Of a DNA stretch of 44,021 nucleotides, positions 5,408 to 40,268 are shown piece by piece. Under the pieces are notes generated by a model. That model worked only from the letters and a program-made list of their open reading frames with translations, was not told the DNA's origin and searched no databases. Position numbers and translations under genes: made by a program. Numbering within the stretch: the first letter of the stretch is position 1; every line of letters starts with the position of its first letter. The stretch is taken from NCBI GenBank assembly GCA_900128565.1, contig LT635930.1, forward strand, positions 1-44,021, written 5' to 3'. Source of the stretch: Stramenopiles sp. TOSAG23-6. Taxonomy: Eukaryota.

Positions 5408-5422
5408 AAACCCTAACCCTAA
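5408..5422 (+). promoter_or_regulatory. Telo-box-like AAACCCTAACCCTAA in a divergent promoter region
   Basis: Telomere-type repeat between the divergent Rab and Rieske genes. Regulatory role is inferred. Confidence 0.4.
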
Positions 5423-6622: not shown

Positions 6623-6774
6623 GAAGTACAAAGGTTGAAGGAGATCAATTTTGTTAGATACGAAATTATATACGAAAAAAGAATCTTCCATTGGTGAACA
6701 AAACGAATTAAATTACATAGGACAAACAATAATCAATTAATATTTANTATAATATAATANAATATAATAGTAAA

Positions 6775-7983
6775 CTAAGCCCAAAGCTGTTTTTCATCTG
6801 GTCGAATATTTCTTGTTTTTTCTATTATGGCATATAAGTTATCACAAGCATCAGTGTCGTTAATATTTGATGTATTTGTATTTGTTCCATCAGTGTCGTT
6901 CATTTTTGTATTTGTTTCTTGACTTTTCTGATTAGGGTGATGGTCGCTATTCTTTGATATGCTATTCTTTTGTCTCATACTGCACAAATCATCCACATTT
7001 TGTTTTTGTATTTCATCAGTACGTTTCCCCCCTCTTCTTAATAAGACATTTTCAGTCGCTTTTTTTTCCGCACGCATTTGAGAATTTCTTAATATTTCAA
7101 AAAATTTAACTTCCTGTTGAGTCAAATCTGGATGCCATATATCAAATATCAAATTGATACGACTCTCTGATGTATCATTCCATGCTTCATGTTCAAATGA
7201 ATCATCAAAAACTATAACTTTACCTTCAATAAAGTTTCTACTTTCTGAACCTACACGAATTCTGCACTTTCCCGCATTTTTAGGAATCACTAACGGAAAG
7301 TGAATCCGTAGTTTCTTGTTTGTAGGTCCATTATGTTTTACAATATGAGTGTGTGGTGCCATAGCCGAGAAGAAAGCATGTCCATATGATCGACCAAAAC
7401 TTTTAAGTAATTCTACAGTTTGTGGGCACCTCGAACGATTTGCCTCAAAATCAACGTTATGAAGGCAGAGATAAAAAACGTTCCACTCGCCAGCATCATG
7501 CGCAGGTGCCCCAACACAAGGATCCTCTTGTATTTTGGAATCTACTTGACTTGACCAAGTGGGGGAACGATATGGTTGAAAACCACTGGTCGTATGAGCA
7601 CAAGTTGCTTTTAAAGCTAATAGTTCGCTTTTGATTATTGAAAAATTGGCTTCCAGTTGAGAAATCCAGGGAAGAGCAGCAAACAATGTATCACCTTCCC
7701 AAAAAGCGTGCGATCTTAACTTTGGTATTCGCTGAGGACACCCCATTTGCCATTGACTAAATCCTTGTGTGTGCGCTTTTGCACCAAGACCGGAAACCTG
7801 CTGCAAAACATATCCAAGAGCGCGAACATTATTTTTATCCCCAGCCATTTTGCGGATACGAAATAATGCTGCCTTTTTAGCAAAAGGAGATAGATGAAAT
7901 TCATCCAGAAAAACTCCTATTTTATTCATTATTTCATTTTCCCTATCGCACGAAGAGGTGGAATTATCGGATGAAGAATTCAT
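6775..7983 (-). CDS. Aspartyl/asparaginyl beta-hydroxylase domain protein (2OG-Fe(II) oxygenase)
   Basis: FSAMAPHTHIVKHNGPTNKKLRIHFPL, FDDSFEHEAWN and RINLIFDIWHPDL. First ATG is at 7983. Confidence 0.9.
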   Translation of the reverse strand: MNSSSDNSTSSCDRENEIMNKIGVFLDEFHLSPFAKKAALFRIRKMAGDKNNVRALGYVLQQVSGLGAKAHTQGFSQWQMGCPQRIPKLRSHAFWEGDTLFAALPWISQLEANFSIIKSELLALKATCAHTTSGFQPYRSPTWSSQVDSKIQEDPCVGAPAHDAGEWNVFYLCLHNVDFEANRSRCPQTVELLKSFGRSYGHAFFSAMAPHTHIVKHNGPTNKKLRIHFPLVIPKNAGKCRIRVGSESRNFIEGKVIVFDDSFEHEAWNDTSESRINLIFDIWHPDLTQQEVKFFEILRNSQMRAEKKATENVLLRRGGKRTDEIQKQNVDDLCSMRQKNSISKNSDHHPNQKSQETNTKMNDTDGTNTNTSNINDTDACDNLYAIIEKTRNIRPDEKQLWA

Positions 7984-8082
7984 CTTCTTTTTCCTCAAGA
8001 TGAAATTTGGATTTTGATCTTAATTCTATCTCGAATCTCGAATTTAGATACATTTAGATATTTGAATTGAAGGCGTACTAGC

Positions 8083-8136
8083 TAGGGTTGGGGGTTAGGG
8101 TTGGGGGTTAGGGTTGGGGGTTAGGGTTGGGGGTTA
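8083..8136 (+). repeat. Telomere-like 13-bp tandem repeat (TTAGGGTTGGGGG) x4, G-quadruplex-capable
   Basis: Seen directly, in the ~240-bp divergent spacer upstream of the DEAD-box gene. Confidence 0.9.
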
Positions 8137-8222
8137 TGTTGTGTACAAAACGACTTCGAGGAACTGGACTGGATCTTCGAGATCTCTTTTGCTGCTAGTC
8201 TGTCTACCACACGACAGCAACT

Positions 8223-10276
8223 ATGGATTCTGAGCATATATTCAATGGCATTGCTCAACAAGGGGCTCGAAAAGAGGGTGGAAGAGGCCGTGGAAGAGGT
8301 CATGGAAGTGGTCGTGGAAGAGGTCGTGGAAGAGGTCGCCGTGGAAGAGGTCGCGGTCGCCGTCACCATGCACAAAATGAAGTAAAACGTCACAATAGTG
8401 GTCACAAAAGAATTCGTGAGAGAAGTTACAGTTCATCCAGTCGTCAGGGTAGTCGTGATGCTCCGCGTACTGTAAAAGATCTGGAACAGCAGCTTTTTTC
8501 GCAAAATGTGCCGCAAGCACGCAAAAAGAATAATAAAAAACGGAGGAAAAAAAAGAAAAATTCGTTGAATATTAATGTAAATTCTGCGAATAGTTCACAA
8601 AACAATGGCGTTCGGCGTTCACCTAGAGTAATTGCAAAAACTTTTCAGAACGATACTGAGATGCCGGATTTCACACCAACTATAAGTTCCGGAAAGAAAA
8701 AAGATTTTATGACTTCTTCTACTTTTGCTTCTTTGGACATTGACACGCGTCTAAAAAGAGGTCTGGCTGAAGTAATGAAATATGTCACAATGACACGTGT
8801 CCAAGAACAAACACTTCCAACTGCTCTAAGTGGAGTTGATTTACTTGCACAAGCTAAAACAGGGACGGGGAAGACTTTGGGATTTCTCATCCCTTCGATA
8901 GACAACGTCTTACGCTGTCGACAGCGTTTGAGTGGTGTTTCCATCATTGCAATTTCACCGACCAGAGAATTAGCTAACCAAATATGTACAGAAGCATCAA
9001 AGTTATTATATTTTCATCCTAATTTTAAGACGTGTTCAATGGTGGGTGGAACAAATAAAAAAACTGATATCAAACGTATCAAAAGTGGCATCGATCTTCT
9101 CGTAGCAACTCCTGGCAGGTTGATAGATCACTTGCAGTCAACTCCAGGATTTCGTGAGCAGTGTGCTAGTGTAAAAGTTTTGATTCTCGATGAAGCCGAT
9201 CAAATGCTAGAGATGGGTTTCAGACCTGATCTTACACGAATTATTAGTTATTTACCAAAGGATAGGCAAAGTTTATTATTTTCTGCAACAATGCCTAAAA
9301 GTTTGATGGATGTGTGTAAAATTGCAGTTAAACATGATTATAAATATATCAATACAATACCAAAAGATCAGCAGCAGACTCACAAAAAAGTTCCACAAGC
9401 TGTTGTCGTTGCACCAGTGGATCAAATTACAAATATGGTTATGAAAGAAATCTCTATAGAGATGCAAAGGCATCCAAATAATTTTAAAGTCATGATATTT
9501 TTTGTGACTGCTCGTTTGACCGGATTTATGGCAACTTTATGTCGAAAAGCTCGTATACCTACTATAGAAATGCATTCAAGAAAAAGTCAATCATACCGCA
9601 CAAAAGCAGCCAAACAATTCCGTGATGGAACAAAACTGGTATTGTTTACGTCTGATGTATCCGCGAGAGGTGTTGATTACCCTGATGTGACGCTTGTCAT
9701 GCAAGTTGGTATGACTGAACGAGAGCCTTACATGTATGTTTTATTTTTTTTCAAATTCGATTTTTTTTTCATACGAAATTTTGTACCTAACGAATTTTTT
9801 TTTGAAATATTTTTCTAAAATACATTCATCGTCTTGGTCGAACTGCTCGTGCAGCAAGTGGAGTAGAAGGTCGAGGAAAGCTAGTATTAGCCCCATTTGA
9901 GTCAAAATTTTGTCTTTCATTACTTACTGAGTTACCTATACAATTTGAGACGTATGTGCCTTGCAAAGATACTCATCCAGAAGTTTTTACTCATGTGACT
10001 CGGATGCTGAATGATATAAAAAAAGATCCGGAAATGAGAAAAGCAGCTGCACAAGCGTATCAAGCATGGATTGGATTCTATAATGGTTACTTGCGAAAAT
10101 TACGTTGGAACAAACCTGAACTCGTTCGCATGGGGACGGAATTTGCAAGGTCTATCAATGCATTGGACGTACAAGGAAACCCTCCAGCTCTTCTTCGACG
10201 AACTGTTGGGAAAATGGGACTGAAAGGAATTCGTGGTCTTACGATTGTGAACTCACCAAATGATTTAGTCTACTAA
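8223..10276 (+). CDS. DEAD-box RNA helicase (Mss116/Has1-related); exons 8223-9733 and 9826-10276 (~653 aa)
   Basis: N-terminal GR repeats; Q motif, AKTGTGKT, PTRELA, TPGRL, DEAD, SAT and ARGVD. Motif VI YIHRLGRTAR appears after intron removal. Confidence 0.93.
9734..9825 (+). other. GT-AT intron, family member (92 nt)
   Basis: TACAT|GTATGT...CATACGAAATTTTGTACCTAAC...AAAATACAT|T. No AG in the insertion. Removal gives REPYIHRLGRTAR. Confidence 0.88.
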
Positions 10277-12396: not shown

Positions 12397-14184
12397 TTAT
12401 GTAACTAACATTTTTTTAGCAAATGTGCTCATACAACAACCAAATGCCTGTATAGGTGAAAATGGGTATTTAAAATCTAGAGAATATACATTCCTTCTCA
12501 CTTTCCCAAAACGAAGCTGTTCTGTATCAATCCCAAATTCACTTTCTAGATGACATGTGTTGTAAAAAAATATTTTAAAAATTTGAAATTCGTTAGGTAT
12601 GGTATTTGGTACGAAAAGAATAAATTTGAAATTCATGATAAAAACGTACATGAACTTTCCACCTCAAGTAGAAAATTTTTTTTTGACGCTTTCTTTACAC
12701 GACCATCAAAATTGAGAGTCCACGCATTCAAATCTTTATTCCATTTATTGTAAAAAAATATAAAAAAAAAATCGTTAGGTACAAAAGTTTCTATGAAAAA
12801 AAAAAAAAAAAAAGTCGATATTATTTTGAAAACGTACACGATGGCTGTTTTGTACGAAATTGTAATAATTGAGACTGTTCTTGAACGCCCAAAGATGCAT
12901 ATTCATTTCTAATAACCTCCTTCTCACCTCCGGTAGGTTTCTCCTTTGTAATTCGATTTTTTTGTTCCATATCAAATCGGTCACAAAGACTCATAAAATT
13001 AGCTTTCAATGCATCTTCATCATCATGACGTGGTAGTATCACTTTCATGTATTTTGGAAAAATATTTGAAAAAAAAATTGTTCGGTACAAAATTTCGTAT
13101 GAAAAAATAAATTCGAAATAAAAAAAAAATAAAACATACATCGAGTTTGGCACTCGGGCTAAGATATTAGTCTCAAAACGAATATGGATTAAATCGTGAG
13201 CAGCATATATTTTCAAAAATACTTTACATTTTGATGTTTCTTTGTTAGGTACAAAATTTGGTATGAAAAAGATATTTATTCAATTTTGAAAAAAACGTAC
13301 ATGACTACTTTTCACCTTTAATTGAGGATTTCGTGCTCTATAATCAAAAAGAGAAAACTGCTTTCCAGTCATATTACTTATCATACACCCTAAATATACT
13401 GGACTTGACTCAGATGTTGGTATACTATCTATAGTTGTTAGCCTAAAAGTGTTATTAATTGTACTAAATATACAGAGACCCTTGTGCGTACTATTCATAC
13501 TAGCAGCCATGTNTTCGTGAAAAAATATTTTTTTTTTGTCAAAAAGCTTGTTAGGTACAAAATTGTGTATGAAAAAAAATATATATTCATGATGAAAACA
13601 TACATCATAAATTCGCCCGATTGTTTGTGAAAATGCCAAGCAGTAACAAACGCACCGACGTATCGACGAATATATCCTAAACACCATATATCAGACACGG
13701 AATCAGTTACAGGAGATAAAAATGTTGCCTTTTGTCCGTGCATTAGTTGGTGCAGACGCTGACCTTCTGGAACCTCAGCAAAGTCCGTTGTTGGTTTCTC
13801 TTTAAATATTCCTCGGAGCTTATTTGGATTATCTTTTATTGGTTCGCTTATTAAAGCATTACCCGTAGAGAGATCAAAGAGTTCATCTCCACTAGCAGAA
13901 TACTCTTCGTAGGACTCTTCGTCGTCAGAAACATTATTTGAGCCTTCTTGAGAACTGTTATCCGAGTCTTTCTTAGAATCCTCAACATCTACAGTCACAA
14001 GTTCTGCCTGTATGTTGCTTTCTTTTACAGTGGGCGTACTTAATTTATTCACGTCTGTGCTGATTGGCTCACTTAGAATACCCTTCTCTACATTTGATTC
14101 AGTCTCTAAGGGAGCTGCGTTTAAATTAGTTTCGGCTACATCACCGAAAATATCCCAAACGTCATCGAACTTTTGATCTCCCAT
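12397..14184 (-). CDS. Tubby-like protein; six exons 14184-13604, 13508-13301, 13204-13140, 13046-12838, 12742-12650, 12554-12397 (~437 aa)
   Basis: The spliced product has Tub-domain motifs YLGCMISNMTGKQFSLFD, FETNILARVPNSMKVILP, KQPSWNKDLNAWTLNFDGRVKKASKKNFLL and LRFGKV...YSLDFKYPFSPIQAFG. Exon lengths sum to 1314 nt, in frame. Confidence 0.88.
12555..12649 (-). other. GT-AT intron, family member (95 nt)
   Basis: TCAT|GTACGT...ATACCTAAC...ACAACACAT|GT; restores the frame. Confidence 0.82.
12743..12837 (-). other. GT-AT intron, family member (95 nt)
   Basis: TCGT|GTACGT...GTACCTAAC...ACAATAAAT|GG; rebuilds the Trp of the Tub P-x-W-N motif. Confidence 0.85.
13047..13139 (-). other. GT-AT intron, family member (93 nt, in frame, no stop)
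   Basis: TCGAT|GTATGT...CATACGAAATTTTGTACCGAAC...AAAATACAT|G; gives PNSMKVILP. Confidence 0.85.
13205..13300 (-). other. GT-AT intron, family member (96 nt)
   Basis: CAT|GTACGT...GTACCTAAC...AAAATATAT|GCT. The two AGs after the branch motif are out of frame. Confidence 0.82.
13509..13603 (-). other. GT-AT intron, family member (95 nt)
   Basis: ATGAT|GTATGT...GTACCTAAC...CGAANACAT|G; gives EFMMAAS. Confidence 0.82.
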
Positions 14185-17057: not shown

Positions 17058-17468
17058 ACTGAAACTCTAGTTTGTGCTTAAAGGCTTATCTTAGACACCT
17101 AAAGATAGACAAAGACTGAATAATCTACTGGTATGGCAGAGATACCAATACACGTATCGCCTTATGTACAATCAAATTGAAATTAGGCGGCTCGTTTAGT
17201 CTATATTGTCCTGGAAAACCTCTCTCTTTTATCCAAGTGTCCGTCAAATTTAGTGAAACATCCCGAAACATCAACGTTGAAAAAATTTATTTTGCGCGCG
17301 CGGTCAACTTTTTGGAAGTCTTCTACTAAAGCACCACGACTCCAAGTATATATAGAGAATATTAATAGATTCCACGCTCTTTGAGTATTGTAATTATATA
17401 TCAAACTCCACGATCCTAGCTACGTATTCGACAAACGTTATAAGTCATCTTCTAGATAATCCTGCAAA

Positions 17469-19697
17469 ATGCCAAAGCGCTGGAAGCGGCGACTCCGAAC
17501 TCAAATGCGGTTGGCTCACGAAGCCAATGCATTACGTGTTCCGAATTCTTCATTGAATAACTCAAAAGTGGTTGAATCAAAGCAGCCCCAGGAATATTTC
17601 CCACTTGACGAAAAAGGTGCTGCTCGTTTTCTTAATGTAGAAGCGATGTCGAAGTCAGATTCCCCTACTGATCTGACGTATCATAGTGCTGGATTACCCA
17701 TATTATATGGTAGTTTAATTGATCTTCCTATTCCTATTCAGGAAGGAAGTGCTGATCTCAAAATAAAGTTAGTCGCCACTGGGGGAGAAATACAGTATTC
17801 TGTATCTTGGGAGTCTCTCTGCCCAGTAAAGCATTTAGGTGTATCCCCTTCGAAAGTTCAGAAATACATTGAAAGTGAGACATCGCTTAAAAATTCTAAT
17901 GAAAATTCTACAATACCTCCGAGTATTTTTGAAAAAGAAGAGTCACTAGAATTATTGCCCTTAACTAATCTGAAAGGTTCGGACAACATTTCCCTGTTTA
18001 TTCCTAAAGCTGGTGTTGTTACATTACATGTGCAAAATAGTAGTACTACCTGGCCCGTAAAGGATGTACATTTTCAAAATTGAATTTCGAATTTTTTTTT
18101 TTCATAGAAAATTTTGTACCTAACGATTTCTTTTTTTATCTACACTTTTTTTCACAATACATGATGATGTAGTATTACACTACGTTGTCTCTTTAGAACA
18201 CATTTGTCCTTTGGTAACGAAACGAAATATCATGTATTCACTTAAAAAGCAGTGTAACGATTTAAATTCGATATATCGTGATAGTCTTAGAGTTGTTGAA
18301 GAAAGTAGTCAAAATTTAGAAACACTTAGAAAGAAATTATGTATGTTTTATTTTTTTTTTTACAAAAAAATCGAATTTATTTTTTTTGAAAAATTTTGTA
18401 CCTAACAAATTTAAGGTTTTTTTTTTNAAANATTTTTNCNAAANACATAACAATAAACACTCCTGCTCCGGTGCTTGCAGGATCACAGACTGTAGTTATC
18501 CAACGTGATCCAAGTATACCATGGTATGAAAGAATGTACAATGATGCACACAAGGCAGGAAATATTCGTCTAATATCAGGTCGCGAATTATTATTTGGGA
18601 ATCCAGAAAATGATGTGCAAAAAGAACATAAAAGCAATAAGAATATTAATAATACTAATCATGATAATAAAGAAGATGGCGAAGTGGAGAGTAAACGTAT
18701 CATTCATCAGAATCCTGTAGATATTGAGCTCTCTGCGGCAGCAATCCAACGTAATAGAGCTAGAGCTTTGAAGAAAGAGCAAGAAGATAAGGAGCTTGAT
18801 CATTTCGCTGAAGCAAGGTATGAGTACTCTCAGTGGTTGGCAAATGAAGAGGAGAAACTCACTGGAAATCATGTTGAGTCTCCTATTAAAGAAAAACGTT
18901 GGAAGCCTTTTATTGGTATTCAACGATTGAAAGAATATAGAGAAGTAGAAGCGTCAAATTCACCAACAAATCGTAATTTAATTGTTGAATCTAAGGCCTA
19001 TGTCAAATCAAATGGTCCAAAAGATGCATTTGGTGATTTACGAAGAGCACAGCAAATAGAAAGGCGACAACGATTAACCAAAAAGCGCACAGGCAATATT
19101 GTACGAAAGAAGCAAAATGTTAAATCAGGTAAAAGGGTAATTAGAATGAATGAACACCATTGGGAGCATTCAGCAAAGGCTCGTGAACGAAATCTATTCA
19201 GGATGAAAAATCCAAGTACATTGCTCCAGCCCCATGGTTTTAAATCCAAGATCAATGGTAATTCGAACCAACAACAAAATCTTAGTAAACTTGAAAAGTT
19301 TGCAAAAAATAGTAAAAGTAATAAATATCAACATAGTACACTTGACACGCAACAAAATGATACAGTACAGAATATACGATTAACATCTTATGATAGGCCT
19401 ATCCTTAGTGCAGAGGAATTAGCAAAACGTCGGGCTGATATTAGAAAACAGTTTTCGCGTAAATTCTCATGCAAAAGTTCGAATAGGCGAAGAAATAATA
19501 TATCATCAAGGAGATCAAAAACATCTAGATCAAAAAGATCTGCTTCTTCAAAGGGTGAACAAAATAATAGGGAAGATAAAAGTGTGTATACATCCAAATT
19601 TCGACATCTTGACAATGTGAATACACTTTATGCACTTCGTGGAAATTCGATAATGTTTGGGTGCCCCTCCTCAATTGATTCTTCGTTTACTATATAA
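17469..19697 (+). CDS. Hypothetical protein with possible N-terminal GOLD-like domain and coiled coil; exons 17469-18065, 18163-18340, ~18448-19697 (second junction unresolved)
   Basis: Three open segments separated by two family introns. GVVTLHVQNS..W.VKD|DDVVLHYVV resembles a GOLD C-terminus. May be two genes. Confidence 0.55.
18066..18162 (+). other. GT-AT intron, family member (97 nt)
   Basis: GGAT|GTACAT...GTACCTAAC...CACAATACAT|GAT; joins two ORFs in frame. Confidence 0.82.
18341..18448 (+). other. Family element (108 nt); GT-AT removal creates TAA
   Basis: TTAT|GTATGT...GTACCTAAC...AAANACAT|AA. Several Ns; 3' boundary uncertain. Confidence 0.7.
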
Positions 19698-23032: not shown

Positions 23033-26000
23033 CTATTGAACTTTCTTTTTTTTCTTCCGTTTTTTTCTAGTTTTTTTCTTACTATTACTATTACTTTTAT
23101 TATTCAAATTTTCTTTTTTTTTTCGTTTCGTCATCTCTTGAGCATGTGCAGTCCAATACGTTTCACCTGTTTTAGACGACGCAGCTTTCCCTAAGATAGT
23201 TCGAGTGAAATCTTCGCGATTGGGCAACTCGGCATTATTTTTGTTCGCAACATTTATTTTTGGCACATTCTGAATGTTATTAGAAAATGTATTGTTGTTA
23301 GGTAATGGATTGGGTACGATATTTTCTTGCATACGTTGTATGGAGTTTCCATGTGGAGCAATAATATTTGGATACGAAACGTTTTGTCGTTGCATTTGCC
23401 ACATTCTTTGAAATTCGATTTGTTCTTTTTGGTTGTACAAACTCAACTCGGGTAATTTTGCACCACACACTCGTTCAGCCTCAAGCCTTGCATTTTTATT
23501 TTCTTCTGCGATATTCCACTGAACAAACTTCATCATTGCATCGTTTAATTTATTAAGATCAGCGATACAGTATTTCTGTCTCTCATTCCAGACAAAATTA
23601 GCATCGTAACGCTTTTTAGCCTCGGTACATTCCGACCAAAACTTTTGAATTGTTTGGGCATAATAATTCAAACCTACTAAAAATGGTCCAGTTTGTAATG
23701 ATGTTCGTCGATGAAGAATAAATCTTACATATGCAGCAGCAGTATGTATAGTCACTGCAGGTTGCAACACATTCGGATTTTTATTAAAGTACCAACTAAT
23801 ATAATCATTGAAACTTTTTTTTTTTGCAATATGTTCCAAAGATGCATTATGAGTTGCCTTGTCAGTGTTTTCGATTATTCCACACCAAGGACATTTAAAA
23901 TTATTTTGAACATTATTTGAAAGACTGGGCCATGCTTCATCGTGTGTATTAAAGTCTTCAGCAGCTGACTCTATGCTAAAATATACTTGTCTATCCTGTT
24001 CCATAGTACGCGGCCATTGATTGTTATAAAAATTAAAAATTTGACGCATATTTGCCTGATACACATCATATTGATGCCGTAGATTAAGATCAAGACACAT
24101 ATAATTGTAATGTTTTCTATTCTTTTCTTGAATTTCCAATCTTTGTTCAACATAAACATCTTTGGTTTCATCGATCGATTTATAATTTTGCCATTTCAGA
24201 AACGCCTCGGCAACTTTAACCTTTTCAAATATTTTTGAAATTCGGTCAAGTTTTTTTACACGATTTTCGTTCGCAATACGTTGAAGCTTTTTCTTTTTCC
24301 ATTCTCGCCAATATTGTTGAATTGTCCGAGCTGCCAATTGAAGGCTTCCGATATCAGTTAAGTCATCAGTAGTATCAGCATTTCGAGACGAAGATACATT
24401 TAGAGTTTGCTGTAAATCAATGTCTTTCTTCATATTTCTCGGTTTCAGTTTTGTTTTATCAGTATCCATCTCCCAATCCCAACTAGGCGGAATTCTTTCA
24501 TATTCAACAACATTAAGAAATAATTTAGACTTTGTTTTTTCCTTCTTCTCTCCTGGATTTTCAACGTCAAACTTGCCAACTTGTGTCCATTCTACTTCCG
24601 TTTCGGTATATACACCTTTGTCCTCTTTTTCAAGCTTCAGTTCTACAATTTTGTCATTTTGATCAACTTCTTTCAAAATATCCGTTACAGCTTGACGAAA
24701 TCCAATCCAATGTATCGGTGAAGTTGGATTATCTTTACTTTGTAAAGCTTTCAATGTTTTCTTTGTAGATGGAAATACCTCTTTAAGGAAACCGAAATGA
24801 TTTGACATACGAAGAAGTTGAAATAATATGACGTGTCCTTCATCTGTTGAACCAATATTCATTACAATCACAAGTAATGCAATAAATGCTCGTCTCCATT
24901 GTTCGCCTTCTTTACGATCGCGAAGTCCACCAAAGAAACCAAGCCCAAAAGCAACTGCGGCAAAACCATCCATTATTCTTGTTGCAAACTTACTCGTCTC
25001 ATCAGGTTTCTTGACATTGCATAAACTTTGACGTAATTTTGATCCACGCTTAAAATAACGATTCATCCAAGATTGAGGTACACGTAACGTTTTACTATCC
25101 GATGCAGAATACGAAGCCATAGGCAAAGTCATTGCGACGAGCTGTTCAAATAACGCAGCGCGTACTCTCATCGGTGCTTCAAGTTCCTTATAACGAATTC
25201 GACCAATACGGGAATCATTGCGTTTTTCTTTTTGGAACCATCGCACGAAATCTGAAAACTTTTCTAAAGCCAAATAAAAATGACTAGAATCGAGACTTTC
25301 TTCAGAATCAATGAAAATACGCCAGAAGAAAAGTGTTTTCTTCATATTTGGATAATAAAATACAAACGGAGGATCATTAGGGCGCCATGACAAATGCCAT
25401 TTTCGTTTTTTAACTTGATTATAATGATACAATTTCTTAAATTCGGATTCGGTGTACGCTGTTGCATCAACTGGATCAAATCGTATTTCCTTATCATTAT
25501 CATTTTTTTTCATCTTTTTTAACTTGAGATTTGCACTGCTAATTTTTGTTTTGAAAGAAACGTCTTTTTCAATTGCATCCATCAATGAATTGACTGCTTT
25601 TTTGTACGCTCCATCGTTTGGTTTACATATTTTCATGTTAATTAACAAATCAAAAATTGATTGAGATGATAGGGATGACGCAGATAATTTATCTTTTTCT
25701 TCAGATGATATTAAAAACTGCCACATCAAATCTAAATTCAATGAACGAAGTATTTCGCTTTTTTCATTTTTTAACTTTACAATATATTTTCTAATCTCAT
25801 CATACTTAGATGGAAGCACAGAAGTATCAAGGATAAAATATCCTAGATTATTTTTACACTTCAATTTCAATGATTCACAGTGACCAGAAAGAATCTTTCC
25901 GAAAGATGTAGATGAAAGTGAAGGATTTTTGTTTTTCACGATACCGGGTAAGAGTGACTGATGATTACGACTATTCTGTTTATCCAAATAATTCGCGGAA

Positions 26001-29000: not shown

Positions 29001-32000
29001 TTGCTCTTTTTCGTGTCTTTTTCGTCTGTATCGTCGTCTTCTGTATAATGACTTGTCACCGATGCAATACTACCTTTAATAAATGATACGATTTCGCCCC
29101 ATACGACACTTGGTGAGAATGCTTCAATATCAACACCTTTTGCCACGGCAGACTTTTCCATTTTTGGCCAATATTTGTCAGTAAAAGACGAAAAAGTGAC
29201 TTGCCCACGCCAAACACCACCATTATTATCATCATTTTTTACATCAGCAACTTCATTATCAACAATATCATTATTCATCTTCAATTGATTCACACGATTT
29301 CGACCTAGTCTCATAACGTCGTCTTCTTCCTCACTATCACTAGCATCGGCCCAAGCACCAGCAGCAACAGGTATTTCAGTTAAACATCCAATATCTTCTG
29401 AAAATGTCACTCCTTGCACAAAATCCTCATTTTGACGATGTTGTACAAAAAACGGTTCAATAATATTATCGTCTTCTTCAGCAGTGCCAAGAGAATTATC
29501 TAATATATTGAGAAATTCTGATGTACGTAAAAACATAGGCCATTGTTCTTCACTGATATAACCAGTAAAAGACTTTGGTAACTTGCTCGGTAAAAATTTA
29601 TCACGTGGTAAATCTAAAGTTCCAGTGACAGAAGCACGCATACCTCGGAAATTACGCCACACTTCTTTACGCAGTACGGCATTTCGGGTCATAAAAACCT
29701 GATGCAAATGTTCTTTTTCAAACTTTTTATAATTGATTGGATCGTCTTGTACATTATTGTCGTCATTATTAGCCTCTTCAAGATCTATTCCATTTTCTAT
29801 TTGAAGAGCTCGCTCAGCAGAAGCACGCATTTTTGCACGAGCAACAGGAACGTTAAAGGTACCACCAAATTCAACACCTTCACCCATTATTTTCATTTTT
29901 TCCCAATGCCTTTGAAAACAATTCCACATCTTAAATATACAGCATGTAGTCTTTCCTGTCCCTGAGCGTCCTAATAATAGTAGTGAAGTGGGGGGGTTTG
30001 GTTGATAATAAATAATTTTCCATTCTTTCTCAGTTACACGAAACGGAATTTCTACTTGTATATCACTTTTACTCGTACCTTGATTCAAAATTGCAGTACA
30101 AAACTTTGAATTAAAGTCATAAAACTTCAAAATATTAAAAGCACCAGGTCTGTGTTCACCAGGAGGGTATACCTTCAATGGACTCATAGTAGTTACACCA
30201 GCACTTGAATACGTTTTTGGAAGATGTTGTTCAATGCCAGTACTAGTTCTTTCAATACCACCACCAACACCAGAATCTTCTAATTCTTTGGTAATACGAG
30301 CCTCTCCACCACGTTTCAGGCATAAACGAATATCTTCAATCTTTCTACTTAATTTATCGTGATTTAAAACTACACACCAAATTGTAATCATGTATTTTCG
30401 AAAAATATGACACAAAAAAANTNTTNGGNTACAAANTTNGNTATGAAAAATATATATCAATCTGAAATTGATAATTACAACGTACATATCGACATAAATG
30501 AAAACATCATTTTTTGCATCATTTCGATTTTGCGACAAACCAATATCTTGTTGCCATATGATTCTTGCACCACTGGTTAATTTTGTTTCGTACACTTTAT
30601 ATTTGGAAATAAGACTCTTTGCTTGTTTATAAGAACCCCAAAAACCTTTAGATATCGTAATAATTTCCTCAAATACTTGAATGATTAACCTCATATCTCG
30701 TTTTCGTTTTTTCTTTATCCAACGATACATTTCAGGTGACATTTTTACTTTCCACGGATTCTCTTTTAGTTCTTCATACTTACTTTCTAATTCTTCTTCT
30801 AATGTTTTAACTTTTTTCGGAACGTTTCGAATATTTCGAATGGCGTTGTAGCTTCTGATTGCTGCTTCATCTTCTTCTTCCATCAAATCATCATCATCGT
30901 CTGATTCGCCGGATTCTTCATCATCACTACTGCTTCCATTATCTTCACTATCTCCGTCACTAAGACTATTGCCTTCATCACTATCTTTCTCTGGGAAAAG
31001 AAGAAATAATCCAGGAATTTGATCCAAAAGTTGAGAAATTCTGACACGTATTGCTTTACACTCCGCTTCACGTTGTGCCAACTTTTGTTTTTTCGTAAGA
31101 GTTTTCACTTCTTTCTTAGTGAGAGATGTTTCAATTTTAGTTGTAGAATCTTTGATATCTATCTTTGATCGATCATTCGACTGTTCAGATTTTGCATTTA
31201 CATCATCATCTTCTGATTCGTCATCAAATTCACCATTTTGTCGCTGCTCCCATGCAATCTTTGCATTTTCAAATTCCTTTTCAAATTCTACTATCAACCC
31301 ATATCTCACCTTTTTTTTATTGTTTCTAGGCATATACTCTATTGCCGTTTTACCTTTAGCATTAACCAAAAGAGGATTTATTTTACCTTTATGCTTTTTG
31401 AGAAGATGGATAATAATGGCGCATTTTCGAGAATGTTTTGATTTAGTATGAAGTAATTTGAAAGCTGCATGAAGAGGAGTGTCTTTGTCATCAGATTCTT
31501 CATTATTCCAATTTGGATTTGCTTTCACTTTTAAAAGTTCTGCAACTAATGTGACTGATCGAGTTTCCACAACAGCATTGTATAGAAACAAATTGAATAT
31601 ACCATCAAGAGAATTTAACAATATTGAAGCTTTCGTTGATTTACTTTCGACTAACTGTCCTGAAGATATTTGTTTACGTAAATTCATCATCAGATGTTTC
31701 TGAATTTTTCGATACTTTGGAATAAAACATTCATATATTTGCTTATCTGACAACTTCGAATTTTTCAACAATGTCGAACCCTTCTCTTTCACACCTGATA
31801 AAAACAATTCTACTGGACACAAACCATCACGATTACCTAATAATAAGTCATAATCTTTGTTGCCAAAAAAGAAATCAAGCTTCACTTGATAAAACTGGCT
31901 AAACATAAAATTTGTGATATCCGCTTCTTCAACGTCTTCGGGCAATGAATTTTTAAAAAATTCTCTGCGAATTGATACATCTCTATTATCGGCATCAGAT

Positions 32001-35000
32001 TCATAATGTGTCAAATCGCGAATTGCTACATGTAAAATGGAACCAGTGCGATCTTTAGGATCATTCCAATAAACGTCGGCTCCAGCTTTAATTAGAGCGT
32101 CGTATATATCTACATCTAAAACCGGAAACAAATTTAACTTAAAAAATTTGAACAATAATCGATTTAACCAATTTTGTAACTCTTTTTTCTTTTCCAAACG
32201 CCAATCTCTCTTTTTATTCGCTTTATTCGGTTTTGGATTTTGAGATTTTTCTTTAGGAGTTATTTTTGATTTTTTAACATTTTCGTCATCACTATCACTA
32301 TCACTGTCACTGTCACTGCTGCTCGAATCAGCAATTCGATCTAAAGTTGGCATTTCGGAACTATCAGAATTACAATCAAAATCAGAATCGCTATTCACTG
32401 CGACTAAATCAGGTATTGAATCTGAATCACTATCACTTTCTTTATCAATTGTTTTACTTTTCTTTGCCTTTTTTGAAGAAGGTTTTTCAACATTTCTTTC
32501 TTCATCTTCATCTTCATCTTCGGGTATTTCAGGATCAATGTAATCAAAAGGATAAAACTTCATAAAAACATGGACAAATTCAAGAACATCAAACGCTTTC
32601 GACAATATTTCCTCTACTACCAAGCCTTTAAAACGACCAGTAGAAAAACGAACTGATTTTGGAGAACCTTGAGATTCAGAATAACATTGAAAAAATTTTA
32701 AAATTTCTGAAAAAGTATCATCTAAGATACATTGAAAATTTGCCCTGCCATCATTATTTTCAATTCCGAACTGCCAAACAAATTTATCTATAGTAGAAAT
32801 ATATTGATCTTCACCAAGAAGGAGTATACAAGCGTAATTAAAGAAGAACGTTTTCGCGCCTACTAAATATGTTTCCAACCAATACTGAAAAACGACAGTC
32901 GACAATTCCGATGATTGAAATATTCCTCTAACAAAATCACCTATTTTCGGAAACTCGGGAGCGATTGCAGTAGTATATATTTTTAAATCTTCTTCTTGTT
33001 TTTTGCCATCTTTAGGCCACATTGAACACGAGTCGTTGTATGCTCTTTTAATTTCGAAATCAGATTCCAGAGACTGATGGTCAAGGGAGAAATGATTAAA
33101 AGGCTGTAAAGATCTCTCTCGTATCTCAAAAAGGTGTTGATATACTGCATGAGATTCTTGGTTTATTGTTTTGTTTTCATGACTCGAAGCTGATTCATAA
33201 ACAAAACAGATGACATTAGTAATACTTGAAATTGATTTAGCAACATATTCACCTTTTACTTTATGTGCACGATTGATAAGTACATCTACGGACGGAAACT
33301 TTGGAAACGATTCATTTAAGATAGCGTTACTGATTATTCCTTTCAACTCTTCACCTGTTGCTAAAAATTGAGCCCAAACCCAATTTTTATCGATAACATT
33401 TGAAAATGCCATGTTGTCAACTGCGACTAAATATGTTTCGTACAATGTAGTATCTTTCACGATGTCTAAAGCGGTTGGTTTTTCTTTTGGTTGTACTTTA
33501 GGTTGTGACTTTTTCGTTTTCTTTTTCTTCGTATTACTTTTTAAATGAGCAAATTCGTCATCATCTGAACTTTCAGATGCACTTGCTATAGGGATAAGAC
33601 ATGGTATACTATCATCACTATCACTATCACTATCCGAATGTATAGGTTGTAGCTTTGGCATATCATCACTATCACTATCACTATCACTATCTGAATTCAT
33701 AGGTTGTAACTTTGGCATATCATCACTATCACTATCTGAATGTAAATGTTGTAGCTTTGGCATATCATCACTATCATTACCAGTGTCTTGTTTAATTTCA
33801 TCTTGTATTTGCATATCGTCAAAATCATCAGGTAATTTATGAAATGTCATTCGTGCTAACATTTCATTCAAAAGTGTATAATGCTTAGTGTAATGGTCAT
33901 GAATTTGCTTCTCTTCTATTTTTTTAACTTTTTCACTTTTATCAAACCAGGAATTGATTACAGATTTATTGTTTTCTATTTCGACAGTGAGTAAGATACA
34001 ATCCAGTGATCGATTACAATCTTCTGCCGACCATTTCATTCTCAATAAATCAGAAGCATTCAGTTCTGTTGTCCAAAGAATACGCCTAGGGTTGCAGCAC
34101 TCGCAAGAATTCTCAAAGTAATCCAAAATAACATCCTTATAAATTTCTACATGACCATCTGACGAGACTTCGCTTGAACAGATTCCAAACATTCTCATCG
34201 AAACGGTCGAATTTACTAATGTCTTACGATCATAATCATGTATTGTGAAAAATAATTGTAGAATTATTTTTGTTAGGTACGGAATTTCATAAGAAAAAAT
34301 ATTAGATAAAACATTCAATTGTAAAAACATACATGGCTTTCCAATGATATAGAGATTTTACGATTTAGGTCTCCACCGAAAAAAGAAGAAATTTCAAAAT
34401 ACTCATCATCCTCAGGTTCGTCTTCATTTGAGTATGAATAGCTAATTTTCAAACTCCAAGTTGAACAATCTGAAGCAATTATGTTACTAAAGGTTAATTT
34501 GAACTCGTAATCTAAAACATCTCCATCTTCTTCAACTGTCTTTGAGTCTGCTAATTTTTTTATACTAAAATATTGTTTTAGAATTATTCGTTCACTAAAG
34601 ACATCCTTAGGTGATGCATATCGTCGAAAGTCCTTTTCTTTTAATCTTTCTAGAGCATTGCCTAGCGAAAGTTTTAATTCTGGATAAAAACAAGAGGTAT
34701 TATCGTGTACACTATCTTTTAGTTTTGGTACAATCATATCGTTGAAAAGTTGCAATACATCAATATCACCTTGATCGGCAGCTTCTACTAAAATGTTCCA
34801 AAATAATCCACCCAACGTACTAAAATCTGTTTTTTTACAATTCTTTCTAAAATATTCTATAACACGTTTTATACCATATTTGCTACCCGCTGGATGCGGA
34901 CCTAATTTTAAATACGGTACAAAAGAAGTAGTTTGTAACGAATACTCAAGACAATGCATTAGCCATTTTACATCTATACAATCCCAAAATGCTTTTGCAA

Positions 35001-38000
35001 ATGCAATATCACAGCGAGAATAAGTTTCAAAATACAGAGTCTTTACAATATTTGATTTCAGAACATGATCTTCACTAATTTTGATTTTTTTCGTCTTCGT
35101 CTTTGGTGACACCGGAATTGTAGATGGATTGCAATATGAATCAGGTAACACTACTTTTGACTCATTTCGCCAACGAATCCATTCACGTTTAAATCTTTCT
35201 AACTTTTGTACAGCTAATAATTGATCTGGAGAATAATAGCCATATTCGACATATTCCGTGGCAAAACGCCTCATTAATTGATGCATATTGGGGGCATAAT
35301 CTAATGTAATTGTCATTAAATCTGAACGAACGCGTTCAAAATTTTTGATAATTTTGTAAATTTGAAATTTATCTCGTACTTTGGTAATGGGAGAAATGTC
35401 TTTTATCTTAAAAGGACCATTACCATTCTTATAAGGACCAGAAGTATTACCACGAAATATAGGATGATAAGTTGTCACAGTTCCAGGATATTCATTTGAT
35501 CTATTTGATACTAAGGCATCTATAAGATTACGGGTCTTCTGTGACTTGATGAGACGCCACTCGACTTCTTTATCTACTATATTTCGACATTCCGCTTCAG
35601 CGACAACGCGCATTTTCCAGTGAGATGTACTTGTTTTTATATCGTTTTTATTTATACGAGTTCGCATCACAGCATCAATCATAAATTCAGGCATATTTTT
35701 GGGCGCAATTTCTGTCGTCACTATGCAGAGTTGCCATACAATATCGCCATTATTTTTTACAATTGGTCGAATCACAGGACAATCATAATGTGTAATCAAA
35801 TCTTCATCTCCCACAAGAGTAGTCGTATCCTCACCAATATAAGTAGGTAGTCTCAGATCAGTCAGTTTAATGTTTGATCTTATATAGGCACCACTAACAG
35901 AAACATTATCATCATACCAATTAACTACAAACGAATCACTTTGATTTTCGAAATCAAGTTTATCCGAGGTTTTTCTACGAGCAGATAACCACAAAAAATT
36001 CTCACAATCAGGATTGTATCCCTGTCCATGCAATAATAAAAGAGTACCCATATGTTTTGGCGTTTCCACTACAAATTTCGACATAATCGACAGAACACTT
36101 TCAAATCGATTCAAGCACAATGTTTCACTACAACCATATTTTTTACCACATTCATAGACACACCCTTCGATATTCGTTTTTTTCCCAATATTTTTCACAG
36201 TAGAAACAAGACCAGAAATACTTTTCATCGCCGTAGAAAAAATACCAGAATCTTTCTTTGAGTTTTTATTAATCAACACACATGTCTTTTCATGATTTTT
36301 CACATTTTCATACAGACCAAAATAGCCACATTTTGCAGTACAACAAAAACGTTTGGAAAATTTTGCCTCTGATATAACGATTGTTTTACTAGGGTTCGGA
36401 CCACCAACTTTTTTATTCTTTTTTATTTCACCACTTTTGAGTAATTCAACTTTATATTTGTTCTTCTCGGTGTTAAATGAAAGAATTTTACCAGCAGTTC
36501 CATGTATGATGAAAAGATATTTCAAAAAAAAAACTAAAATTTGTTAGGTACAAAATTTCATACAAAAAAACATGTAGACAAAAAATTGAAATGAAAACGT
36601 ACATTGTACTTTAACGCTTTTGGATTTTTCAAACCATTAATCAAAATTATATCACCAACGTAAATTGTTTCATCGACTGGTTCACATTTAATTTTTTCTA
36701 TTTCAGCAACTTTTATATTCGATGATTTATTCGATGATCCATTTAGAGACGTTTCAATAGTATCTGGAGAAGTTGAACGAGAGCTCGATTTAGGGTTAGG
36801 GTTAGTGTTTTGTTCTTTTGAATCTTTTGAATCTTTTGATGTATTGATTTGTGATGAAGATTTGGCGTCATCTTTATTTTTCTTCTTTTTCTTCTTTTTC
36901 TTCTTCTTCGACTTTTTCGCAACATTTGTAGACGTCTGCGCATTAGTCTTAGGGTTCGAACGAGAATTTGCTTTTTCAACTTTCTCCGATGTAGACTTAC
37001 TCTCATTTCTTGCTTGTTTTAGGCGAGCTATTTTCGCAGCATGTTCTTCAATAATTGCAGCTTCCTTCAATTGTTGCTCTCGTACAACTCTTTCCTCATC
37101 TGCAGCGATTTTAGCGACTCTTTTTTGCTCTTCCAAGATTTGTTTTTCTTTCTGAATTCTTCGTAATTCTTTTTCTTTTGCAATTTCAGCAGCCTTGAGA
37201 CGTTTTTCTTCGGCAAGCTTCTCCTGTTCAATACGTCTTTGTTCCTCATTCTTTTCCCTTAAACGCTTTTCTTCAGCAAGTTTCTCCTGGTCTCTTTTTC
37301 GTTGCAACTCTTTATTTTCCTTCATACGCTTCTTTGCAGCAAACTTTTCCTCTGCCTTACGACGCGCTAATTCTTTCTGTTTTCTCTTATCTCACTTAGC
37401 TATTTTGGTTTTGAACGTAAAGTGGAAGCTAGCATTGTATTGTTCTTGTGTTGTTTGATTTTACACGTTTCTCTTCAGCAAGCTTAGTCGCAATTTCCCT
37501 TTCACGCTTAAGTAAGGCTTCCACTTTTCGTCGTTCTTCATCAAGTTTCTCTTCCTGTACATTGCGATTGGCGATATTAGAGTGTGACATAGTCTCAAGC
37601 TGAGATGGCTGAGGTTCGAGCATGCCTAGTGCCTGTGTGAGCGTCAACACACCCTGCTGCACCAAATCGCGCAGGTCATTGGTCAAGGCACTCATCCCTT
37701 TCGAAGCAACTGTGCGATAAAACTGCTGGTCTACTTCTGGTTGAATAGCACTATCTGAACGTTCGAATGGGTCATTAATCACGGTCTCCGTTCCACTGGA
37801 AGCGACTCTGCTGTACGACTGCTGGTTCAAGGAAACCCTTGGCTGGTTTACTTCAGGTTGAATAGTACTATCTGAACGTTCGCGCGTGTCATCAGTCAAG
37901 GCACCTATTCCATTGGAAGGAACAGCGCGATGAAACCGTTGCTTTACTTGTCGAACGACAATGTCTGGACGTGGATTTCTGCATACTCTGCAAATTATAC

Positions 38001-38425: not shown

Positions 38426-40268
38426 ATGGCTTCGTCACCAGTGACCAGCGATATGAAGCTGAGGCCATCTCATGCAGAAAAAGCTTTGACATTTTATGAA
38501 GCTGTGGCCAAAGTTGTTGCTTTACGTCTTGAGGATAAAAATGCTGAAGAAAAAGAAGAAACTTGTTCTTTAGGTGTTTTCATCCCTGATCTGGCAAATT
38601 GTATTTTTACAGGTCACACAAATACAGACATGGATTCCATAGCGTCAGCAATTGCAGCTGCACATCTATATCCTGGGGGTATTGCTGCCCGAAGTAGTGA
38701 CATCAACTCTGAAACTGAGTTTTGTCTGAAACGTTGGGTAAGTCAAAACATACTAACACTCTCTTGTTTACTTCACTAATTGTTTTTTTTTTCTGTTGTA
38801 CACCATATTATTAAAACCAACTCATTTAAACTCTGCAAACATTTACATTACAGGATATACCAATGCCTATTCCGTTTATTGAAGCTTTGGATGCTCAAAG
38901 GAAGCAGAATGCAATTATCAACATGGAAAATTCACCTGAACATACAAGCCGTGTCTGCTTAGTTGACCACAACCAAATTACGCAAAGTCCTGCTCAATTA
39001 GAAGAGAGTTTTGTTGTAGGAATAATAGATCATCATGCTATGCAAAAAAAAACTATATGTACAGATAAACCTGTGTTTGTTGATATTCGCCCTTGGGGCT
39101 CCGCATGTAGTATGTATGTTTAATTTTTTTTTAATTTCAATTTTTTTTTCGTACGAAATTTTGTACCTAACAAAAATTAATTTTTTTTTTGAAATATTTC
39201 TCCAAAATAAATTATTACAAGTCAGTATTTAAATCAGAGTAAGCAAATCCCAAAAAAGTATACTATATTTATTTCAAGCAATACCGCAATATATAGGCCC
39301 TACTACAATTTTACACCCTTTTATACTAACCTATTTTTCATTGAACACACATTTGACATATATTACAAATAATAAAATTGCAGGTATGCTATTATCTGGA
39401 ATTCTCTCGGATACATTAAACCTTCAGTCTCCAACAACAACAAATCATGATCGTCTTGCAGTTGCAACTTTAGCTTCTATTGCTGGTGTTGATGACATCA
39501 ATACACTTGCAATTGAGCAGTTTCGTGCGAAAAGTACGAGTTTAGCTTCGCTCTCTGCATATCAAATTGTATGCGGTGATCGAAAGATATTTGATTGTGG
39601 TGGTGAAATTATGGCATTTGGAACTTGTGAATTTTACGGTGGTATGAATTCTCTTTTAGGACGCATTTCAGAATTTATGTATTTTTTATTTTTTTTCAAA
39701 TTTGATTTTTTTTTCGTACGAAATTTTGTACCTAACAATTTTTTTTTTTAATATTTTTCCAAAATACATACATGAACTGCGAGCATTGACAAAGGAAGAA
39801 AAACTGCGGTATAATTTCTTGACACTAGTTGATATAGAAAATATGCATTCCATTTTAGTTATGCCAACTATGGCCGAAGTTTTACTTGCCAGATGTGCCT
39901 TCAAAACAACTAATAAAGATAATAAAAACATAGAACCTTTACACTATAGTGGAGTTTTCGAATCCTTACAAGAGATCAAGAAAATCGAAAATGAAGTTCA
40001 AAATGCAGGTGTCCTTGATCTAGGAAATCGTGTTTCAAGAAAACATGATTTTATTCCACCATTAGCTGCGGCTATTAATGATGGTTTCGTACTACCCGAT
40101 GATGTTAAAAAGAGTATTAGTGATGAAGAAGAAACTGCTGAATATGGACCTGTTGTTTTAGCTTGTGGCGAACATGTATGTGGTCTTCAAAGAATAAGTA
40201 TGAAAGGACTAGGCCTTGGAGTATTGGCGTGTATTCGACTATCAGAATGTGTAGGTCATTGTCATTAA
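38426..40268 (+). CDS. Family II (DHH/DHHA2) Mn-dependent inorganic pyrophosphatase, PpaC-like; exons 38426-38737, 38854-39113, 39213-39257, 39376-39678, 39770-40268 (~472 aa)
   Basis: GHTNTDMDS, LVDHN, IIDHH, RPWGSACSII, IAGMLLSGILSDTL...SPTTT and VSRK..FIPPL. Confidence 0.88.
38738..38853 (+). other. Canonical GT-AG intron (116 nt)
   Basis: TGG|GTAAGT...TTACAG|GAT, in frame. Confidence 0.88.
39114..39212 (+). other. GT-AT intron, family member (99 nt)
   Basis: AGTAT|GTATGT...GTACGAAATTTTGTACCTAAC...AAAATAAAT|T; gives GSACSIITSQY. Confidence 0.87.
39258..39375 (+). other. Non-family non-canonical intron, probably GT-AA (118 nt); GT-AT alternative ending 39363
   Basis: AAAA|GTATAC...TACTAAC...AATAATAA|A ATT GCA gives QIPKKIAG. 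The nearby CAG (39381-39383) is out of frame. Confidence 0.65.
39679..39769 (+). other. GT-AT intron, family member (91 nt)
   Basis: TTTAT|GTATTT...GTACGAAATTTTGTACCTAAC...AAAATACAT|A. No AG inside. Gives SEFIHELRAL. Confidence 0.87.

Follow-up and report, generated by a model that had tools for sequence, protein, structure and literature searches.

We analysed a 44,021-nucleotide (nt) stretch of DNA from Stramenopiles sp. TOSAG23-6 (assembly GCA_900128565.1, contig LT635930.1, positions 1 to 44,021), referred to below as the window, in which a DEAD-box helicase gene (8223-10276, + strand) is split by a 92-nt insertion at 9734-9825. The explanation that we favour, at a probability of about 0.6, is that this insertion belongs to an introner-like family and is removed at the RNA level by the spliceosome in the GT..AT register. 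Precise removal of the 92 nt, yielding an intact helicase, is very probable. That most introns in this lineage, an abundant and uncultured group of marine stramenopiles, form a mobile family with an obligatory non-AG (AU) 3' splice site, processed by the major spliceosome beside GT-AG introns, stands at roughly even odds. Removal from RNA, the involvement of the major spliceosome, the branch site and the GT..AT register are all points that we infer; spliceosomal removal is argued from the sense orientation of all 13 family copies, the conserved 5' and branch boxes, the T-tract, the canonical introns alongside and a joined contig from a run labelled as complementary DNA (cDNA). Both the source label and the closest relatives indicate an uncultured marine stramenopile.

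The insertion separates motif VI from the rest of the helicase

The helicase is spread over two open reading frames (ORFs) of the + strand, one at 8199..9818 with its ATG at 8223 and the other at 9806..10276 in a different frame. Exon 1 ends ..GAGCCTTACAT at 9733, the insertion reads GTATGT...TTTGTACCTAAC...AAAATACAT, and exon 2 opens TCATCGT at 9826; the order of elements within the insertion is GTATGTTTT, TTTGTACCTAAC, T-runs and AAAATACAT. Read through, the exon 1 frame reaches a stop codon inside the insertion (9816-9818), and the insertion length shifts the frame (92 mod 3 = 2). Exon 1 matched the Pfam profiles DEAD (E 4.6e-48) and Helicase_C (E 1.5e-13, profile positions 11-93 of 110); the Helicase_C match ends five residues short of the end of exon 1, so that the part of the domain with motif VI is not in exon 1. 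Removal of the 92 nt produced a 653-codon, otherwise intact ORF with the features of a DEAD-box helicase, namely DEAD, Helicase_C and motif VI (HRxGRxxR), the last at the start of exon 2. The joined ORF aligned without gaps to all eight homologues compared (64-65% identical marine relatives, oomycetes, a green alga and an ochrophyte), every one of which carries YIHR[LI]GRT[AG]RA at the junction.

No AG occurs on the + strand between 9724 and 9853, and the first one downstream (9853) lies after the HRLGRTAR codons. Taken alone, this absence is weak evidence, because the insertion is poor in G (7 G, 26 A), only about two AG would be expected in it by chance according to our arithmetic, and longer AG-free runs exist on the same strand, where this 129-nt run ranks about 14th. 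What goes beyond chance is the 13-copy family, all in sense orientation and all running GTA..AT. Motif VI is in place at this very point in 8/8 aligned homologues. TACAT stands at 9729-9733 and again at 9821-9825, so that the helicase cut slides by five positions and six cut registers give one identical product.

These results bear out every detail that the initial annotation had observed in the letters of the window: an AG-free insertion that shifts the frame and carries a stop, a first downstream AG beyond HRLGRTAR, a gene intact elsewhere, and a TACAT repeat that makes several registers equivalent. Its decisive claim, that motif VI can be kept only by non-AG splicing, is supported. No AG acceptor precedes motif VI; splicing at the RNA level is deduced from orientation and signals.

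Two public models represent this helicase gene (eukprot:GSMAST32.ASY1.ANO1.2577.1 and.1373.1). Both read into the insertion (..EPYMYVLFFF..), jump to ..LVLAPFE.. and lack motif VI, a loss that we attribute to a predictor restricted to GT-AG. The public proteome of this organism is probably badly affected by family introns. Several further parts of exon 1, itself uninterrupted, are also missing from both models.

Thirteen copies share splice-site-like boxes and an AT end

Family members were found by a core-motif search followed by an nhmmer profile search of the window. The results revealed 13 copies (nhmmer E 1.4e-20 to 4.9e-9), 91-108 nt long, with a mean pairwise identity of 0.72 (range 57-92%). 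All 13 lie within coding sequence and in sense to the host gene, distributed over five unrelated genes: a Tubby-like gene has five copies, a giant ORF three, a DHH-family phosphoesterase gene and an unnamed gene two each, and the helicase one. If the strand were free, the chance of 13/13 sense orientation would be 2^-13 by our arithmetic.

Every copy starts GTA and finishes AT, and none finishes AG; the 5' end is GTATGT in seven copies and GTACGT in four. In each of the 13 copies a CCTAAC-type box, with T-runs behind it, stands 32-43 nt before the 3' end. It reads CCTAAC in 11 copies, CCGAAC in one and an N-masked equivalent in one, and in the helicase copy its second A is 35 nt from the 3' end. 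The copies are preceded by AT in 12 of 13 cases and followed by G in nine. AG is wholly absent from six copies and occurs more than 10 nt past the box in only one, where its use breaks the frame, since 79 cannot be divided by 3. Apart from the helicase copy with its TACAT, the copies have a repeat of only 1-3 nt in common between their two ends.

An internal CATAC/CGTAC box (9765-9775 and equivalents) was observed just upstream of the branch box. Complementary to the 5' GTATG/GTACG and similar to the 3' ATACAT, it showed no consistent covariation across the 13 copies. A degenerate family fragment was also present at 6645-6685 on the - strand (nhmmer E 2.1e-5, box TATCTAAC). It follows closely on the stop codon of the - strand gene 6775-8019 and, like the full copies, has the sense orientation.

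Removal of the copies restores the host genes

Removal of the copies in the GT..AT register restored complete ORFs in the helicase, the Tubby-like gene (5 introns) and the DHH gene, and also in the tested part of the giant ORF, and read-through hits a stop codon in 11/13 copies. At the Tubby-like copy starting at 12837, the junction rebuilds the Trp codon of ..PSWN..; Tubby-like exon 5, just downstream of it, corresponds to positions 185-211 of Pfam Tub. Of the 18 Ns in the window, 13 lie inside family copies (18427-18444, 30421-30441, 13513), so the assembly is least reliable in these repeats.

Besides the family, two canonical GT-AG introns were found, and the AT-ending copies thus make up 13 of the 15 introns in the window. 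Both canonical introns lie in the DHH gene, and it follows from their presence that the organism possesses a normal spliceosome with yeast-like signals. The GTAYGT and CTAAC boxes of the family resemble the signals of these ordinary introns (GTAAGT/GTAAGC, TACTAAC, YAG). Coordinates are collected in Table 1.

Table 1. Coordinates of the helicase features, the other family copies and the ordinary introns in the window.
Feature	Position	Strand	Remark
Helicase exon 1 (ATG to ..EPY + AT)	8223..9733	+	DEAD domain and most of Helicase_C
Upstream TACAT repeat copy, exonic, codes Tyr and start of Ile	9729..9733	+	
92-nt insertion, read as family intron in the GT..AT register	9734..9825	+	nhmmer E 6e-20; skipped in X2 contig record 12
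5' splice-site-like box GTATGTTTT	9734..9742	+	GTA in 13/13 copies, TTT next in nearly all
Branch-site-like box TTTGTACCTAAC	9780..9791	+	TACC.AA invariant in family except N positions
3' end TAAAATACAT, last 5 nt = downstream TACAT	9816..9825	+	Terminal A.AT in 13/13 copies
Helicase exon 2 (T + HRLGRTAR ... stop TAA)	9826..10276	+	
Motif VI codons HRLGRTAR	9827..9850	+	Conserved in 8/8 homologues
Family copy, 97 nt, unnamed gene 17460-19697	18066..18162	+	GT..AT removal restores frame
Family copy, 108 nt as assembled, 5 Ns	18341..18448	+	Frame off by one
Family copy, 99 nt, ends AAAT, DHH-family gene	39114..39212	+	
Family copy, 91 nt, DHH-family gene	39679..39769	+	
Family copy, 101 nt, giant ORF	36502..36602	-	
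Family copy, 95 nt, giant ORF	34238..34332	-	
Family copy, 96 nt, 7 Ns, giant ORF; open on read-through	30390..30485	-	nhmmer E 4.9e-9
Family copy, 95 nt, Tubby-like gene	13509..13603	-	
Family copy, 96 nt, ends ATAT, Tubby-like gene	13205..13300	-	
Family copy, 93 nt, box CCGAAC, Tubby-like gene; open on read-through	13047..13139	-	
Family copy, 95 nt, ends AAAT, Tubby-like gene; sole copy preceded by GT, not AT	12743..12837	-	
Family copy, 95 nt, Tubby-like gene	12555..12649	-	Last exon matches Tub 222-255 of 256
Ordinary GT-AG intron, GTAAGT .. TACTAAC .. CAG, 116 nt, DHH gene	38738..38853	+	DHH profile split over two exons
Ordinary GT-AG intron, GTAAGC .. TACTAAC .. GCAG, 145 nt, DHH gene	39239..39383	+	

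The predicted junction in a public run

Parts of the helicase gene are contained in 19 public metatranscriptome runs, and contigs of four of them were aligned to the N-free segment 8200-11468, which among the 13 junctions covers the helicase copy only. In run X2, a 304-nt contig (depth 10.5) aligned to 9497-9728 and 9821-9892, skipping 92 nt with a cut movable by five positions. With 232 nt on one side and 72 nt on the other, it carries exactly the junction that the initial annotation had predicted, in a single contig of a cDNA-labelled run whose RNA nature is uncertain: the labels of X2 are source METATRANSCRIPTOMIC, selection cDNA and strategy WGS, and the run is flagged 'RNA? (probably DNA)'. 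Runs X1, X3 and X5 have no contig across 9700-9860 and hence were not counted as evidence. A 21-nt tandem duplication right after the helicase stop (10274), present in X2 contig record 14 and absent from the window, is strain variation in the 3' untranslated region of the helicase gene.

The summed contig depth over the element (9726-9834) reached 23584 in X1 (766 contigs) and 1239 in the poly-A run X3, compared with 2-8 over the exons. This element depth implies very many copies in the genome or in its relatives. In X2 the element depth was 9.6 against the 23584 of X1, a difference that might hint at spliced RNA in X2; contig depth is a poor measure and was not relied upon. Record 6 of X1 reaches 9825, so that an independent run contains the element with the same 3' end. 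A metagenome scan with a 14-nt core pattern gave no family member (nhmmer E <= 0.001) among the at least 119 loci listed, and the 119 listed loci were rejected as chance matches.

Proposed excision and the points against it

We read the helicase insertion as a probable intron from an 'introner-like' family, young, transposon-like and present in many copies, within the nuclear genome of an uncultured marine stramenopile. The spliceosome would most likely cut the pre-messenger RNA at AT|GTATGT, with the CCTAAC box serving as the branch site and a T-rich tract behind it. Joining at ..ATACAT|T would leave an intron that ends GT..AT rather than GT..AG, and the junction would rebuild the codon ATT (Ile) and with it an unbroken motif VI, ..EPY-I-HRLGRTAR... 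Compared with major (U2-type) introns, a 5' GT consensus suited to pairing with U1 and U6 (GTRAGT / GTATGT) is present, as are, judged by sequence, a branch-like motif (CTAAC / CTRAY) and T-runs, and the 3' AG is absent. Intron position -2 has a structural role, contacting the branch adenosine. Our guess is that the conserved 3' box (..AAAATACAT) may be read by a lineage-specific 3' splice-site factor, and that the invariant A at -2 may have been retained for the usual contact with the branch adenosine. An Rfam search of the window returned no matches.

Several observations weigh against this explanation. The joined form was seen in a single contig of the run flagged as probably DNA; this contig differs from the window at three letters and comes from another strain, whose DNA might simply be without the insertion. 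Many element copies in the RNA libraries are present unspliced, as excised RNA or as DNA. A protein search with helicase exon 2 for joined fragments gave four matches (best 45% identity), none of them bridging the junction, and the corresponding search with the DHH exon gave none. The copy at 18341 as assembled fails the frame, since 107 nt rather than 108 must go; this one-base discrepancy is probably a sequence error in N-rich T-runs. The copies starting at 30485 and 13139 have lengths divisible by three and are open on read-through, so the frame is uninformative for these two. An intron with U at its last position is not known to be a routine substrate of the major spliceosome. GT-AT is known mainly as a rare, splicing-competent U12-type pair (PMC1557818; 10.1101/2020.10.12.336362). 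An AT..AC-type register is also possible in every copy at the protein level, as judged from the predicted products: a cut two bases upstream at the 12837 copy alters only a synonymous Ser codon.

GT..AT is nevertheless the only terminal pair common to all 13 copies, and parsimony favours this register, in agreement with the initial annotation, which had preferred it from a comparison of copies; it would place GTAYGT where U1 and U6 expect it. The same precise excision from RNA in an AT..AC register (ATGTATG...ATAC), possibly by a minor-type (U12-like) or altered spliceosome, has a low though not negligible probability. Since AT precedes 12 of the 13 copies, that register yields the identical messenger RNA in those 12, and in the 13th it yields the identical protein. 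A first and C last is a known compatible non-GT-AG pair. Among non-canonical U12-type variants, AT-AA and AT-AT are the most frequent, and in the related stramenopile Blastocystis minor introns number in the hundreds, most of them AT-AC. However, the 5' end would then be ATGTAYGT, a poor fit to the [G/A]TATC[C/T]TTT given for U12-type introns, and the conserved box is 32-43 nt away from the 3' end, compared with the 9-12 nt given for U12-type branch sites. Likewise, GTAYGTTTT has GT rather than CC at +5/+6, unlike a minor-type 5' site, and the box lies outside a minor-type branch distance of about 9-15 nt. The termini become mixed in the AT..AC register (10 AC, 1 AA, 1 AT and one GT..AA), whereas GT..AT is uniform in 13/13 copies and its GTAYGT is a textbook major-type 5' site. 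The predicted junctions at the 12837 copy are ..CCATCGT|GGAATAAAG.. for GT..AT (or TG..AA) and ..CCATC|ATGGAAT.. for the AT..AC-type cut.

Removal from DNA and other alternatives

It is also conceivable, at a small probability, that no RNA processing is involved and that the insertion is a recent miniature inverted-repeat transposable element (MITE), polymorphic or excised from DNA, which has left the helicase gene broken in this cell; the joined contig would then derive from DNA of a strain or nucleus that lacks it. The ends of the copies are complementary (85.7% of cells pair, against 23-58% with a slid partner), and 12 of the 13 copies are surrounded by a MITE-like 2-nt AT direct repeat; the joined contig, moreover, comes from the slightly different strain (three other letters) in the run flagged 'probably DNA'. 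Inverted termini and a target duplication, as in a small DNA transposon, seem a better reading of this end complementarity and the AT repeat than an RNA helix, and they fit an introner-type origin; the AT repeat could also reflect splicing or target preference, and no transposon superfamily could be assigned. DNA excision or neutral insertion would be indifferent to strand, whereas 13/13 copies are in sense within the coding sequence of otherwise intact, conserved genes, five of them in the Tubby-like gene alone, and 13 inactivating insertions across 44 kb of intact ORFs are implausible. Furthermore, the best conserved parts of the family are the splice-site-like and branch-site-like boxes, and the X2 library is described as metatranscriptomic cDNA. 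Ciliate internal eliminated sequences (IESs) are short AT-rich insertions in coding sequence that carry a short direct repeat, are removed precisely from DNA, are bounded by TA and are independent of strand. The family resembles them as short AT-rich coding-sequence insertions flanked by a short direct repeat; unlike IESs, only 1/13 copies can be read as TA..TA and all are in sense, and a ciliate-type IES was rejected on these two counts.

Excision from RNA might instead be defined by folding of the complementary ends, independently of normal splice-site reading, an idea that we regard as improbable. Excision by complementary ends folding together has also been proposed for euglenid nonconventional introns. 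Most copies could form a terminal helix of nine pairs, and the minimum free energy (MFE) fold of the helicase copy pairs AUGUAU with AUACAU. End-folding excision was proposed for the non-canonical introner elements of Amoebophrya, which combine inverted repeats of 8-20 nt with direct repeats of 3-5 nt and non-canonical ends (PMC7789003). However, compensatory changes occurred in none of the nine pairs, substitutions break pairs, and RNAalifold predicted no pairs across the family. With -9.1 kcal/mol (z -0.46, 55/200 shuffles equally good) the fold energy is unremarkable, and the uniform ends with conserved GTAYGT and CTAAC boxes are unlike the Amoebophrya elements. Conserved RNA structure, or an end helix, as the determinant of excision was rejected for want of covariation. 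A bulge-helix-bulge (tRNA-endonuclease) intron was likewise rejected, with no RNAalifold pairs and an MFE z of -0.46.

An assembly artefact, a pseudogene or ribosomal bypass from TAC to TAC is very improbable. The window, a draft, contains 18 Ns, some of them within family copies, and the TACAT repeat could offer take-off and landing sites for a bypass. Yet the element recurs with an unchanged 3' end in independent public runs, the helicase gene is intact otherwise, and the skip is visible in nucleic acid in the X2 contig. Bypass would not be general, since the other 12 copies share just 1-3 nt at their ends, and ribosomal bypass was rejected on this ground.

Relation to known introns

With 13 similar copies (identity 0.72) read as introns in five unrelated genes, the family corresponds to what defines introners, many similar copies that occur as introns in unrelated genes. 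According to PMC7789003 and PMC12130899, the introners of Micromonas and Aureococcus are likewise similar short intron copies in unrelated genes, with ends resembling terminal inverted repeats, a short border repeat and only sense copies within genes. The Aureococcus elements described there have canonical splice motifs (PMC7789003), unlike the AT 3' end found here in 13/13 copies. The introner survey of PMC12130899, which is based on annotated introns, gives only AG and AC as 3' sites. The introners of Amoebophrya, also a marine protist, resemble the present family in being repeated introns with inverted and direct repeats and non-GT-AG ends, on which standard gene predictors fail (PMC7789003). 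They have no dominant terminal dinucleotides, in contrast to the uniform GT..AT and the yeast-like GTAYGT and CTAAC of our copies, and the authors of that study make the case that they are spliced by another route than usual (PMC7789003).

Non-AG 3' ends are routinely accepted in the tunicate Fritillaria borealis, as they would be here, and diverged U2AF subunits are indicated there as the reader of the 3' end (bioRxiv 10.1101/2025.08.15.670264). Fritillaria is an animal in which, by that account, 95% of introns break GT/AG at both ends, unlike the canonical 5' end and the coexisting GT-AG introns of the window. The rare U12-type GT-AT introns have the same terminal dinucleotides as the family (PMC1557818). 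They differ from it in their 5' site ([G/A]TATC[C/T]TTT) and branch distance (9-12 nt; 10.1101/2020.10.12.336362), compared with GTAYGTTTT and a box 32-43 nt from the end with a T-tract, and they are isolated introns rather than a repeated family. The searchable literature, supplements and subscription journals aside, yielded no account of an intron family that combines canonical 5' and branch signals with AT at the 3' end of every copy; the main text of PMC5778133, as available and supplements aside, contains neither 'splice' nor 'non-canonical'.

Other features of the window

Four tandem 13-nt telomere-like units (TTAGGGTTGGGGG) were present at 8083-8135 (+), about 90 nt upstream of the helicase ATG and between two divergently oriented genes. 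A CCCTAACCCTAA was located at 5411-5422, upstream of a Rab-like gene on the - strand. The sequences at both places may be promoter elements of the telo-box kind. The giant gene at 23033-37391 (-) contains three family introns; without those at 36602 and 34332 it is more than 4,700 codons long. A gene running off the right end of the window carries four dispersed coding repeats of about 600 nt (41216, 42443, 43046 and 43655, - strand) with the motif ..VGVCLRDVD.DSYVN.T.KGWGYYQSNGKKGHGG..; Tandem Repeats Finder was silent on them, as their period exceeds the limit of the program.

Significance

The AG at the 3' end of introns is among the most constant signals in eukaryotic genes. If our explanation is true, the family would show a transposon creating introns without supplying AG. 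If the reading as a mobile family with an obligatory AU 3' splice site is true as well, it would represent a second, lineage-specific mode of reading the 3' splice site, in which the transposon spread by bringing its own signal. It would also provide a ready-made system for studying how the second splicing step selects its site. Predictors confined to GT-AG mis-model these genes and would miss 13 of the 15 introns in the window, and the proteomes of these uncultured grazers, together with the functional inferences drawn from them, are likely to be systematically damaged.

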